16,038 bases of DNA from Gemmatimonadaceae bacterium (lineage in GTDB: Bacteria > Gemmatimonadota > Gemmatimonadetes > Gemmatimonadales > Gemmatimonadaceae), in contig JBBDYC010000013.1 of assembly GCA_040901985.1 (NCBI GenBank), forward strand, positions 1-16,038. The letters run 5' to 3'. This document shows, in pieces, positions 3,834 to 12,625 of the stretch. Numbering within the stretch: the first letter of the stretch is position 1; each line of letters opens with the position of its first letter. A program made the position numbers and the translations under genes. The notes beneath the pieces were generated by a model. That model was not told the origin of the DNA, did not search any database, and saw only the letters and a list, made by a program, of their open reading frames with translations.

Positions 3834-4118
3834 ATGACCGACCTCCGTTACCCGATCGGACCTTACGTCCGCCCAGTCACCAACTCGGCCGGCGAACGCG
3901 CCGGGCGGATTGCCACGATCGCCGGGCTCCGCGCGGCGCTCCGCGCCGCGGTCCACGGCCTCTCCGACGCACAGCTCGACACGCCGCACCGTCCCGGCGG
4001 GTGGACGGTGCGTCAGCTCGTGCACCACGTCGCCGACTCGCACACGGCGAACTACGCCTGGCACAGTCTGCACCACACGGCGCACGTCACCGCGCTGCGC
4101 TCGCGCGAGGGCTGGTAG
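3834..4118 (+). pseudogene. YfiT/BstA-like (DinB superfamily) thiol transferase/metal-dependent hydrolase, shortened to 94 aa by an in-frame internal deletion (pseudogene or mini-protein)
   Basis: MTDLRYPIG, LSDAQLDTPHRPGGWTVRQLVHHVADSH and YAWHSLHHTAHV are YfiT family motifs, but HVADSH is joined almost directly to YAWH. Confidence 0.75.
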
Positions 4119-9380: not shown

Positions 9381-9623
9381 ATGCGGCTCGAGGTCCTCGT
9401 TGACGGAATGCTGGCAGTGCACGCCAGGCACGCGCTCTTTACGGCGCTGGGGGCCGTGAGCGGGCTTGTGCGGGCCGAGGTGGAGTTGGGGCGCGTGGAG
9501 GTCGAACTCGCGCCGGAGGCCGCTCGCGAGGCGGTGGAGGCCGGCGTGCGGGCTGCCGCCGAGGGCCTCGGGTTCCGGGTCACCGCGGTGCGGGCACTCC
9601 CACGCGCGCTGCCGACGCTCTGA
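9381..9623 (+). CDS. Heavy-metal-associated (HMA/CopZ)-fold small protein lacking CxxC
   Basis: L-x-VDGM-LAVHA..ALFTALGAVSGLVRAEVELGRVEV...VRAAAEGLGFRV follows the HMA beta-alpha-beta-beta-alpha-beta pattern. Confidence 0.68.
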   Translation: MRLEVLVDGMLAVHARHALFTALGAVSGLVRAEVELGRVEVELAPEAAREAVEAGVRAAAEGLGFRVTAVRALPRALPTL

Positions 9624-9630
9624 CCGGACG

Positions 9631-9671
9631 CACAAAACGCCGAGCGATGCCCTTCACCTCATCGCCCGGCG
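9631..9671 (-). terminator. Rho-independent terminator
   Basis: Minus strand CGCCGGGCGATG-loop-CATCGCTCGGCG followed by TTTTGTG. Confidence 0.78.
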
Positions 9672-9792
9672 CTCCGTGTGTTCGGTTCCCTTCGGTTGTG
9701 CCGACTTGAGCGGACAGGGGGCCGGCCGGCCCCCCACCAGCACCGACCCGCACCCCGCTGTCGCTCAAAATCGGTCGTACATCCCTTCAGAC
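9631..9792 (-). ncRNA. Candidate ECF-sigma-dependent small RNA (~160 nt)
   Basis: Bounded by a promoter motif (9795-9825) and a terminator (9631-9671); internal long hairpin 9701-9774; no convincing ORF. Confidence 0.5.
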
Positions 9793-9794
9793 AC

Positions 9795-9825
9795 GGCCTA
9801 CGGCCAAAGGGTTTCCCGGGTTTCG
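9795..9825 (-). promoter_or_regulatory. ECF sigma-type promoter, copy B
   Basis: CGAAACCCGGGAAACCCTTTGGCCGTAGGCC = GAAAC-N17-CGTA; 23/31 identical to copy A. Confidence 0.62.
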
Positions 9826-9859
9826 CCGGGGCCGACCGGCCGGCCCTGCCGCATCCCCC

Positions 9860-12388
9860 TCAAAGCGAGAACCAGTACGACGCCTTGATCAGAAAGGTGT
9901 TGTCGGCGCGCGTATCGAACAGGTCGCGGAAGTCGCGGAGTGGCGAGAACGAGCCGCCGTCGCGCGTGTCCTGGCGGCCCTGCTGCCAGACGAGGAAGAT
10001 CACCGACCCCGGCCGATACTCCCACCGCAGCACGCTGTTGGAGCGAAACTGCTTGAAGTTGAAATCGTCCGGTGTCACCGCGCCGTACGGCGTGAAGCGG
10101 TCATCGTAGTCGGCGGCGCGCGGATCGGCGAGCTGCCGCAGGTTCGAGTAGTCGCCGCTCGTGGTGAACGGCTGGGCGTAGAGCTGGAACGACAGCGTCG
10201 GCGTCATCGTGTAGTCAATGCGCGTCGTCAGCGAGGTCGTCTGCTGCTCGAGCCGGGCGAAGGTGTACGCCGTGCCCCCGCCATCGGGGAAGTTCCCGTA
10301 CCACTGCGAGTCGTACGTGCCCTTGTTGTGGTTCACCCCGATGCTCGCCTGGACGCTGCTGGCGACCCGGAAGCGGACCTGCGGCGACACCCCGAACTCG
10401 GTCGAACCCCCGGCGCCGGGGAGCATATGCCAGCTGTCCCAGACGAAGGTCACCGGCGTGCGGCTGTCCGTCTCGAATCCGAACCAGACGTTCTGGCGGA
10501 AGGTGCGGCGCACCGCCGGCCCACCGCGCGAGGCGCGGTCGTCGTAGTTCTCGCCGATCCCGTTGATGTTGTACCCGGTCGAGAACCACCACTGATTGGC
10601 GAGCTGGCCATTGAGGTTGATGTTCCCGCCCGAGTTGAGCTTCAGGCCCTCGGTGCTCCACTCGTTCCACTGGTTGAAGTTCACGGAGAGCTGGCGATAC
10701 AGCGCATTCGGCGTCCGCAGCTGCAGGCCCATCCAGTTGCCATTGGTCAGGAGGTCGGCGCGATTCATAAAGCCGGCGTCGTTGACCTCGTAGCCGGCGC
10801 TGGTGCGCGTGGCGCCGACGTTGAAGCGGGTGATGCCGCCGCCGGTCTTGCCGAGACTGACGTTGACCCGGCTCCCGGAGAGCGACGTCGCCGAGCTGTC
10901 CACCCGCCACTTGGAGTCGGGGCGCTGGAAGAAGTGCGCCGAGCTCGTCTGGGTGCGCAGGATGCTCGCCTCGCTCCCCGCGACGCGCGACCCGACTGCC
11001 GACCCGCTCAGCTGGAAGTTGTTGTTCCAGAAGCGGTGACGGGCGTCCACGCCAAGCGCGTAGGCGTTCTCCCGCAGGAAGTCGCGGGTGTCGGCGTCGA
11101 GCGCCCGGTTGGTCGCGGTGAACATCATCCCGACGCCGGAGGCGCCGTTCCGCAGGTCCTGCTGCAGCCGCGTGACGAGGTAATTCGTCTGCGGCTCGAT
11201 GGTGGCGCCGCCGGCGCCCAGCTCGCGCTGGGTGATGGCGTTGAGGAAGCCGACGTTGAGTCCACCCGCGGTGCGGCCGGTGATCTTGGCGGCGCCGAGG
11301 ATGGTGCTGTTCTTCGCGTTGTCCTGGTCGTAGTACTGGCCGCTCAGCTGCGGCGCGCGACCGACGCGGCGTGAGTAGAACAGGTTGTTGGCGAACGAGA
11401 AGGTGCCGGCGCCCTCGAGGAAGAAGGGGCGGCGCTCCTCGAAGAACTGCTCGAAGGCGGAGAGGTTGAGCACGGCCGGGTCGGCCTCGACCTGCCCGAA
11501 GTCCGGGTTGACGGTGCCGTCGAGCGTGAGGTTGGACGTGATGCCGTACTTCACGTCGGCGCCGAGCGTGAAGGTCTGTTGCCGCTCAAAGGTCGTGCCC
11601 GTGGGCCGCGCCGCATTCGTGGCCACGGAGTACGGCAGGACCTCCAGCCGCCGTGGCGAGGCGATCCCGGCGAAACCGCTGACCTCGCCCCACTGCGACA
11701 CGAATCCAGTGCGCGACCGGCGATACACCGGCCAGGAGATCCGCTCATTGTGGCGTGCGACGTCGCGCCAGATCGCGAAGCCGAACGTGTGTTCCTCGGC
11801 CGCCGGGAACCGGAGCTGGTTGAACGGAATCCGGTACTCGGCGGTCCACCCGTCCGCGTCCACGGCGGTCGCGACCTCCCAGACGCCGTCCCACGAGAGG
11901 TCCTCGTTGCCGTCGTTGGAGATGTAGACGTCGCGCTTCACGCCCATCGGATTGACCGTGAAGCGGAAGCCGGTGCGCTTGTCGTTATAGGCATCCACCA
12001 TCACGTGGATGTAGTCGGACTGCGTCCGCGCGTCGCGGCGCGAGAGGAACGACATCACCGAATCGGGCGCCGGGTCGTAGGCGCGGACGAAGACATAGAG
12101 GTACTTGGCGTCATAGCCGACGCGCGCCTCGGTGCGGTAGCGCGCGTCGGCGTCCTCGACCGGCTCGTGCTGCCGGAACTGGGTAATCGGCGGTGCGAGG
12201 CGCCAGATCTCGTCGTCGGCCTTGCCGTCCAGCACCGGCGCCACATCAGCGCGCGCCGCCGTGGCGCCGCGCGCGGTCGGCAACGGGATCACCACCGGGT
12301 CGGGGGGCATCACCAGCGGGCCCACGCGTGGCGGGGCGGCGGGACCGGCGGCAACGACTGTCTGGAATGCGAGAGCGAGAATCAACAT
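9860..12388 (-). CDS. CBM9-like (DOMON-type) N-terminal domain plus DUF5916 probable outer-membrane beta-barrel
   Basis: PVLDGKADDEIW, YLYVFVRAYD, DLSWDGVWE, WTAEYRIPF; TVNPDFGQVEAD, FFEERRPFFLEG, FYSRRVG; C-terminal amphipathic strand FLIKASYWFSL. Confidence 0.88.
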   Translation of the reverse strand: MLILALAFQTVVAAGPAAPPRVGPLVMPPDPVVIPLPTARGATAARADVAPVLDGKADDEIWRLAPPITQFRQHEPVEDADARYRTEARVGYDAKYLYVFVRAYDPAPDSVMSFLSRRDARTQSDYIHVMVDAYNDKRTGFRFTVNPMGVKRDVYISNDGNEDLSWDGVWEVATAVDADGWTAEYRIPFNQLRFPAAEEHTFGFAIWRDVARHNERISWPVYRRSRTGFVSQWGEVSGFAGIASPRRLEVLPYSVATNAARPTGTTFERQQTFTLGADVKYGITSNLTLDGTVNPDFGQVEADPAVLNLSAFEQFFEERRPFFLEGAGTFSFANNLFYSRRVGRAPQLSGQYYDQDNAKNSTILGAAKITGRTAGGLNVGFLNAITQRELGAGGATIEPQTNYLVTRLQQDLRNGASGVGMMFTATNRALDADTRDFLRENAYALGVDARHRFWNNNFQLSGSAVGSRVAGSEASILRTQTSSAHFFQRPDSKWRVDSSATSLSGSRVNVSLGKTGGGITRFNVGATRTSAGYEVNDAGFMNRADLLTNGNWMGLQLRTPNALYRQLSVNFNQWNEWSTEGLKLNSGGNINLNGQLANQWWFSTGYNINGIGENYDDRASRGGPAVRRTFRQNVWFGFETDSRTPVTFVWDSWHMLPGAGGSTEFGVSPQVRFRVASSVQASIGVNHNKGTYDSQWYGNFPDGGGTAYTFARLEQQTTSLTTRIDYTMTPTLSFQLYAQPFTTSGDYSNLRQLADPRAADYDDRFTPYGAVTPDDFNFKQFRSNSVLRWEYRPGSVIFLVWQQGRQDTRDGGSFSPLRDFRDLFDTRADNTFLIKASYWFSL

Positions 12389-12444
12389 AAAGCGTCCTGG
12401 TGCGATTGCCGGTGGGGCGGCCGTCGGGTGGAACCACGTGCGCA

Positions 12445-12475
12445 GGCCTACGCCTGTCGGGGGTCACGGGTTTCG
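12445..12475 (-). promoter_or_regulatory. ECF sigma-type promoter, copy A, upstream of the DUF5916 gene
   Basis: CGAAACCCGTGACCCCCGACAGGCGTAGGCC = GAAAC-N17-CGTA, about 55 nt upstream of ATG 12388. Confidence 0.65.
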
Positions 12476-12625
12476 ACAGTCCATTGGACGGAATCGTTGC
12501 TTGAAACCTTCCCCGCGCCTGTTCGCGCTCCGGTTGTCCCATTAGTTTCGTGCTGTCCAACCACTCGACACGCTCGCCCGACAAGCGTCGGCGCGAACGC
12601 GTCCCGCCACGGAATCGAGGCCCGA

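Follow-up and report, generated by a model that had tools for sequence, protein, structure and literature searches.

A candidate small RNA family of Gemmatimonadaceae with two types of extracytoplasmic function promoter and a predicted pairing site at the lpxD start

The 16,038-nucleotide stretch analysed here (the window) is contig C13 of G000, a Gemmatimonadaceae genome of 2.64 Mb with 69% GC and an estimated completeness of 99.97%. The locus under study contains, in order, a divergent mgtE gene, a gene for a CBM9-like/DUF5916 protein, a non-coding element, a convergent 80-amino-acid open reading frame and a gene for an NAD-dependent oxidoreductase (Table 1). An earlier note on this DNA had proposed that one duplicated promoter of the extracytoplasmic function (ECF) type precedes both the DUF5916 gene and a small RNA (sRNA) encoded behind it. 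The conservation, covariation, synteny and promoter statistics presented below bear out ECF-type promoters before the gene and before the predicted downstream sRNA. We hold with high confidence that the element is a functional RNA, and it very probably represents a new sRNA family, found in the genus of G000 (g1) and in two sister genera of the Gemmatimonadaceae (g17 and g24), whose best predicted target across genera is the start of lpxD.

Table 1. Positions of the features of the locus within the window.
Feature	Position	Strand	Remarks
Promoter b of the DUF5916 gene	12472..12500	-	-35 GCAAC 12500-12496, -10 TGTCGAA 12478-12472; predicted +1 12465
Promoter a, copy A (GAAAC-N17-CGTA), of the DUF5916 gene	12449..12474	-	predicted +1 ~12443; conserved in part only
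C-rich site in the DUF5916 leader	12407..12423	-	core 12417-12407, roughly 29 to 19 nt before the start codon
CBM9-like + DUF5916 protein	9860..12388	-	842 aa; PF19313 and PF06452 matches
Promoter a, copy B, of the RNA	9799..9824	-	GAAAC 9824-9820, CGTA 9802-9799; predicted +1 9792
Promoter b of the RNA	9787..9815	-	GAAAC 9815-9811, TGTCTGA 9793-9787; predicted +1 9780
Predicted small RNA	9631..9792	-	length 162 nt (promoter a) or 150 nt (promoter b)
Hairpin 1	9701..9774	-	long interrupted stem; found in all three genera
Invariant apical loop GCUGGUGGGGG	9731..9741	-	11 nt, G-rich; predicted seed
Hairpin 2	9631..9680	-	loop GUGAAGGG (9657-9650); strongly covarying; g1 only
Convergent 80-aa open reading frame	9381..9623	+	kept in relatives; no Pfam match; between the RNA and the downstream oxidoreductase

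The 163-nt stretch containing the element folds as two hairpins with free ends (z-score of -4.86), and the fold of hairpin 1 holds across genera. Its apical loop is invariant in all 15 loci chosen by protein orthology alone and in all 20 chosen by model; the g17 and g24 loci were selected by the core pattern described below, which makes the invariance of the loop there circular in part. Its closing pair changes between U-G, C-G and U-A, which leaves the 11-nt loop in place. In an alignment of 14 sequences, 94% of the cells are paired and 14 of the 32 pairs change on both sides; none of 500 shuffles scored as high, and slid controls reached 33-47% paired. This covariation signal sits mostly in hairpin 2, where 10 of 14 pairs have changes on both sides. 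The earlier note had ended the RNA in a U-tailed terminator, and a 19-bp hairpin is indeed present at the 3' end, but it carries only four U's, partly paired, and a terminator scan of the window did not call it. The U-tract is likewise absent in most of 16 folded g1 loci, while clear U-tailed terminators occur in g24. Hairpin 2 is the probable 3' end of the RNA and possibly also the terminator of the convergent gene. The unpaired linkers contain repeated ACCGAAGG/GAAGG words (window 9681-9700; also at L004, L009 and L012), and the GUGAAGGG loop of hairpin 2 (window 9650-9659) is conserved in g1. The possibility that the element encodes a small peptide was rejected, since a conserved start is absent and the promoter-to-core distance occurs in all three frames.

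A first model of the RNA (R1) found one copy each in 39 of 54 g1 genomes, one of these matches being weak. A 19-nt core was present in 35 of 400 genomes of the family, 33 of which belong to g1, g17 or g24, and the core pattern occurred in 12/14 g24 and 11/14 g17 genomes. A second model (R2), built from 46 sequences, returned no match outside the three genera in 150 genomes of the family and 150 of the phylum. Broader searches were less useful: a 14-nt pattern run over 301 phylum genomes was too noisy, the 30 loci read being unrelated and mostly matches in coding DNA. A scan of 185,579 species gave 110 matches, of which those outside Gemmatimonadota had neither synteny nor promoter a, two of them carrying a class-b-like match attributable to chance. 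Also set aside as non-syntenic were three Gemmatimonadota-labelled loci (L174, L225 and L255), single matches in g12 and g154, and a second match in G129. The well-assembled g1 members in which the RNA was not found have small genomes of 1.8-2.3 Mb (G001, G121, G302, G428, G439 and G440), which suggests loss of the RNA during genome reduction.

The synteny in relatives that the earlier note had asked about was clear: across 70 distinct syntenic loci, the element always lies at the same place. The gene upstream of it is the DUF5916 gene at 47 of these loci, mgtE or EamA directly at 16 and a remnant at one, the remaining six being too short to tell. The DUF5916 gene is therefore absent at 16 of 64 informative loci, and there the RNA keeps its promoter or promoters; genome G116 has the RNA and both promoters and no DUF5916 match. 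This retention argues that the RNA is an independent gene rather than a 3' untranslated region. The gene and the RNA share their promoter types, but the RNA does not require the gene beside it. A quick tree built from 41 DUF5916 proteins puts the RNA-bearing loci on one side of a single branch (approximate likelihood-ratio support, SH-aLRT, of 88), making a single origin likely.

These loci also bear on the idea that the element acts in cis, either on the NAD-dependent oxidoreductase gene downstream, as its 5' leader or attenuator, or as a 3' untranslated region folding back on the DUF5916 leader. The oxidoreductase gene does lie downstream on the same strand at nearly all loci, 100-270 nt away at many g17 and g24 loci, and in g1 a single mRNA would have a 5' leader complementary to its 3' element. 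However, in g1 the element is separated from the oxidoreductase gene by the convergent gene and a long hairpin, a U-tailed terminator follows the element in g24, and the RNA's own promoters persist at the 16 loci from which DUF5916 has gone and in G116; we regard a cis role as quite improbable. As a separate observation, lineage-specific short tandem repeats after the DUF5916 stop codon form long intergenic hairpins at several loci (L006-L008, L010, L023, L138 and L285-L292), and these hairpins yield spurious matches to miRNA families.

The two minus-strand 31-mers from which the promoter proposal started lie where the earlier note placed them (12475-12445 and 9825-9795), are identical at 23 of 31 positions, have GAAAC and CGTA separated by 17 nt in both copies, and the second, copy B, begins 34 nt past the stop codon of the DUF5916 gene. 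The notion that one is a duplicate of the other did not survive comparison, as copies A and B have only the promoter cores in common in relatives. Of 12 upstream regions of orthologues that were read, five (L005, L009, L010, L012 and L013) have a degenerate copy A or none. As a genome-wide motif, the element we call promoter a fared well: GAAAC-Nn-CGTA occurs 11 times in G000 with n=16 and 15 times with n=17, versus 1-9 times (median 3) for the other spacers from 10 to 25. Ten of the 15 matches with n=17 are intergenic and nine lie at most 200 nt before a start on the same strand. In the comparison genome G016, of which 2.0 of 3.1 Mb was compared (1,176 orthologue pairs), the motif is retained at the orthologue for 9 of 13 such promoters. 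The Pfam names among the nine conserved genes include an outer-membrane efflux protein, a ShlB-type barrel, GrpE and a DUF4097 protein, and the set also includes the gene that follows a SigW-like sigma factor. GAAAC-N16/17-CGTA thus behaves as a real genome-wide promoter motif. Before the RNA, it is found at 60 of 70 loci against a background of 0.75%, and a pyrimidine-purine (YR) step falls at its predicted +1 in 48 of 59 RNA loci. At grpE (G000 C16:11935-12558) the motif is conserved in both G000 and G016.

The resemblance to the SigW consensus also holds, in that the -35 GAAAC and the -10 CGTA match the Bacillus subtilis SigW elements (PMC5758882). At L033 (G000 C11:39013-41360), promoter a follows a SigW-like ECF gene and precedes the next gene rather than the sigma gene itself, an arrangement kept in G016. 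The best NCBIfam match of this ECF protein is SigW, at 153.5 bits against a cut-off of 209. The gene behind it encodes a protein with an anti-sigma-like HxxxCxxC motif, as judged by eye.

Where the earlier note had assumed a single promoter class, there are two. A second ECF-type motif, (G/C)AAC-N17-TGTC.(A/G)A, overlooked at the first reading, is nested with each copy of promoter a at the orthologous loci, and we refer to it as promoter b. It is present in 40 of 41 orthologous DUF5916 leaders at RNA loci, with a score that is the genome's best, and in 19 of 24 DUF5916 homologues checked separately; going by these leaders, it is the better conserved of the gene's two predicted promoters. Before the RNA, a class-b-like motif occurs at 67 of 70 loci against a background of 0.2%, a figure to be read knowing that the search expression was tuned on the RNA loci themselves. 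At least one motif of class a or b precedes the RNA at 68 of the 70 loci, and YR steps coincide with the +1 predicted from promoter b in 34/42 gene leaders and 36/37 RNA loci. The two promoters stand in tandem in g17, and the g24 hairpin lies between a single hybrid promoter and a U-tailed terminator. The tract after the -35 element of promoter b resembles the T-tract described for SigW-type promoters, but its -10 element (TGTCNAA and variants) is not the SigW element (PMC5758882). Similar motifs lie upstream of three ECF genes (C4:71899, C8:251740 and C8:97355). L124 and L129 no longer have the DUF5916 gene but keep, between mgtE and the RNA promoter, a remnant similar to the class-b promoter of that gene.

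One could still see in all this a mere terminator accompanied by chance or relic promoter motifs, long GC-rich intergenic hairpins being common in these genomes. This view is hard to square with the invariant loop at every orthology-picked locus, the presence of just one copy in each genome, promoter motifs well in excess of background and YR steps at the predicted starts, and we consider it very improbable.

The element could not be assigned to a known RNA family. In a search of the window against Rfam 15, only a tRNA passed, and the best hit overlapping the element was mir-1207 (24.3 versus 90 bits); six homologous loci searched in the same way likewise gave nothing that reached threshold. 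A signal recognition particle RNA was dismissed, the genome's own copy being located elsewhere (C16), as was 6S RNA, for which there is no RF00013 match genome-wide and whose closed rod with its central bubble differs from the two hairpins with free ends seen here. That G000 has no 6S match despite its completeness is an observation in itself; a diverged 6S RNA may exist. No match was found in this genome to Hfq (PF17209), ProQ (PF04352) or CsrA (PF02599). A sponge of the CsrB/RsmZ type was accordingly rejected, with CsrA not found and the GAAGG repeats lying mostly in linkers, and so was the class of Hfq- or ProQ-dependent sRNAs, with the chaperones not found and the U-tail weak. Membership in the 6C or sX13 families was discarded as well, the loop here being G-rich and not C-rich; the element would work in a similar manner. 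What the element does share with envelope-stress sRNAs is a conserved ECF-type promoter upstream and a conserved seed complementary to mRNAs of envelope genes. Neither this RNA nor an sRNA pairing with lpxD was found described in a literature search covering the main texts of mostly non-subscription papers, and supplementary listings of ECF promoter motifs or of computed RNA motifs could bear on novelty. A search for papers on sRNA or non-coding RNA in Gemmatimonadota found none, and to our knowledge almost nothing is known of RNA regulation in this phylum.

Potential partners of the loop were sought among start regions, using genes called with a simple caller of our own and the partial G016 genome, so some targets may have been missed. 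The neighbouring gene came out first. With the loop taken as a 16-mer, the DUF5916 leader is ranked 1 of 2,271 start regions (-32.5 kcal/mol; mean -20.5, standard deviation 3.1). It ranks between 1 and 29 across 21 seed and window variants, and is the best conserved match among 951 orthologue pairs. The sequence CCCC(C)ACCGG is present in all 28 leaders whose protein is at least 65% identical, all from g1 (L014 and L139 were left out of the leader counts, their start not being resolved), and is absent from the leaders of 23 homologues in genera without the RNA, syntenic ones included. Two of 14 g17 and g24 leaders fall in the top 5.2% by pairing energy. In 27 of the 28 leaders, the GGA ahead of the start is covered by a hairpin with which the site overlaps. 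Binding of the loop is computed to ease opening of the ribosome site in 19 of 28 loci, by a mean of -1.2 kcal/mol, versus -0.26 kcal/mol and 44% of cases in 250 control genes (standard deviation 2.0), an effect that lies within one control standard deviation and is absent in the window's own leader (+0.7). We predict a DUF5916 leader target confined to g1, for which the sign of control could be either.

Since the loop is unchanged where the DUF5916 gene is absent, another partner is needed, and this is where the evidence departs from the outer-membrane protein that the earlier note had grouped with the RNA. The only other gene with a predicted helix of at least 9 bp in both G000 and G016 is lpxD, which stands in the operon bamA-skp-lpxD-lpxC/fabZ-lpxA-Gfo-lpxB-DUF374-lpxK. 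In G000, the duplex with the loop spans -12 to -4 (-17.7 kcal/mol); the g1 and g17 sites are 2-14 nt away from the start codon, within the ribosome footprint. A 47-nt window fixed on the start of lpxD contains the hexamer CCCACC in 16/20 RNA-bearing versus 1/20 RNA-less genomes, and in genomes held out from this comparison in 8/9 versus 0/9. Totals including seven discovery genomes are 29/35 versus 1/30, against a background of 3.3-4.5% of genes (G436 and G061 have no lpxD match). Within g1, five of six RNA-less genomes are without the lpxD site, and four of these five show a purine-rich Shine-Dalgarno sequence instead. Of 29 such sites, 24 are located in a hairpin loop, versus 40 of 102 in control genes, and the stem sequences around them differ between genera.

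A number of observations weigh against these assignments. The genome G440 keeps the lpxD site although the RNA was not found there, and G616 carries the RNA without the site. As the RNA-bearing genera fall on one side of a branch, the correlation with lpxD amounts to roughly a single gain plus two co-losses. Of 300 shuffled loops, 40 bind the lpxD windows equally well, and 118 of 495 loop permutations hold the same hexamer. Conserved 8-bp sites are not in excess genome-wide (13, versus 3-17 in 30 shuffles), and for this reason a broad regulon was rejected; one conserved 10-bp site is likewise obtained in 11 of 60 shuffles. C-rich words are in general enriched before starts, the DUF5916 site is present in none of 14 g17 and g24 leaders (proteins 47-58% identical), and the minimum-energy fold closes two extra pairs within the loop, whose opening costs 4.4 kcal/mol. 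A hexamer screen gave 13 conserved pairs versus 3.3 expected, with control words at 7/3.2, 12/8.4 and 8/3.1, and provides a lead only. CCCACC or CCCCAC is conserved in both genomes before the starts of further genes (G000 C7:44583, C2:150330, C19:92964, C16:22310, C1:159504 and C1:154184), several of which have export-signal-like N-termini by eye; they are candidate targets with weak statistics. The most over-represented hexamers from -35 to 0 of ATG in G000 and G016 are TAGATT, TAGCTT, TAACTT and TATCTT, suggesting many leaderless or short-leader promoters.

The shuffle controls, which are not significant, would also be expected if the RNA were real and its loop bound a protein or a partner other than mRNA, for instance 3' fragments of tRNA-Tyr, with the mRNA matches reflecting C-rich starts. 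Consistent with such a partner, the 3' end of tRNA-Tyr can form 9 contiguous Watson-Crick pairs with the loop, GAAGG words recur in the unpaired parts, and the closing stem is invariant too, beyond what mRNA pairing alone would need. On the other hand, the acceptor stem sequesters the tRNA site, which would cost 11.7 kcal/mol to open, CsrA was not found and the element has no 6S match. Moreover, the tracking of the RNA by the lpxD site within one genus, and its retention in hairpins whose stems have been rewritten, would go unexplained; we judge a non-mRNA partner to be unlikely. The tRNA-Tyr gene itself (G000 C4:129559-129642) has a 5' end equal to the loop core and a 3' end complementary to it over 9 nt, and does not encode CCA. 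Taking both sides together, we think it rather probable, from the sequence comparisons, that the RNA pairs with the lpxD and DUF5916 mRNAs.

On the reading we prefer, envelope stress would free one or both of two ECF sigma factors. The SigW-like factor of the C11:39013 region would read promoter a and the second ECF clade (C4:71899, C8:251740 and C8:97355) promoter b, presumably giving an RNA of 150-162 nt. The loop of this RNA would kiss the loop (CCCCACC) that caps a small hairpin at the start of lpxD (-14 to -4 in G000) and exclude the ribosome. LpxD would then drop and, via the tightly packed lpxC/fabZ-lpxA-lpxB-lpxK genes, lipid A output would probably fall too, with the upstream bamA and skp spared. 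In g1, the co-induced DUF5916 mRNA would have been added as another target, which would create a feed-forward loop of either sign. That an ECF-driven trans-acting sRNA represses lpxD translation by chaperone-independent loop pairing appears to us evenly balanced. For the full reading, namely an undescribed Gemmatimonadaceae sRNA family under two ECF factors, whose G-rich loop kisses the C-rich loop of lpxD, uncouples lipid A from bamA-skp without a chaperone and recruited the neighbouring gene later, we would offer a probability of roughly 0.45.

The repressive direction in this scheme is read from the position of the site only, and the same RNA and the same pairing could instead activate, with the loop opening the start hairpins of lpxD and DUF5916 and so replacing a direct induction of lpxD by sigma-E such as that of Escherichia coli. 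Both mRNAs do have hairpins over the Shine-Dalgarno sequence or start codon, and opening of the DUF5916 ribosome site is eased to the extent given above. A conserved ECF promoter was sought before the lpx operon and none was found, and RpoE raises lpxD in E. coli (PMC4651636), which speaks against repression. Activation is at odds, however, with an lpxD site inside the ribosome footprint in g1 and g17, and with an opening effect that is smaller than the control spread and reversed in the window's own leader, and we consider it distinctly unlikely.

If repression of lpxD by the RNA is correct, the RNA would act like FoxI of Fusobacterium nucleatum (PMC9546586), an ECF/sigma-E-controlled sRNA of a deep-branching Gram-negative bacterium without Hfq, which represses mRNAs of envelope proteins through a seed at the ribosome site, as predicted here. 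FoxI differs in having porin and adhesin targets, whereas the element here has two nested promoters, a G-rich loop as seed and a predicted lipid A enzyme as target; no sequence relation between the two was noticed, and none was looked for. MicA, RybB and MicL/SlrA of E. coli (PMC4651636, PMC6358824) likewise form the non-coding arm of an envelope-stress regulon, but MicA, RybB and MicL depend on Hfq (PMC4651636), which was not found in G000, and the element has no Rfam match. In mode of action, the element recalls 6C of Mycobacterium tuberculosis (PMC6486639) and sX13 of Xanthomonas (PMC3771888), both of which dispense with Hfq and pair with mRNA starts by means of G-C-rich seeds in apical loops on stable stems. 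The polarity is opposite, as those RNAs use C-rich loops on G-rich mRNA motifs and the present one a G-rich loop on C-rich sites; unlike them, it carries a single seed hairpin behind ECF-type promoters.

RybB is known to change lipopolysaccharide via WaaR, while the available part of the same paper names no sRNA acting on lpxD and calls the effect of hfq on lpxA/lpxD in Salmonella an open question (PMC4651636). The lpxD pairing, if true, would answer the question raised there of a specific sRNA acting on lpxA/lpxD and would mean that an sRNA directly controls a core enzyme of lipid A synthesis. A further chaperone-less phylum would then join those in which envelope stress has a non-coding arm, and the pairing would supply a G-loop/C-loop mirror image of the 6C and sX13 mechanism. 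Since promoters, transcription starts, the seed and two specific targets are all predicted for the RNA, these proposals are directly testable.

As for the neighbouring genes, the DUF5916 protein is, we infer, exported or located in the outer membrane; no relatives were found in a search of the PDB, and a literature search found no paper naming "DUF5916". The protein encoded by the convergent open reading frame we take, by eye, to be HMA-like. Elsewhere in the window, a short DinB-like open reading frame of 94 amino acids (3834-4118) may be truncated.

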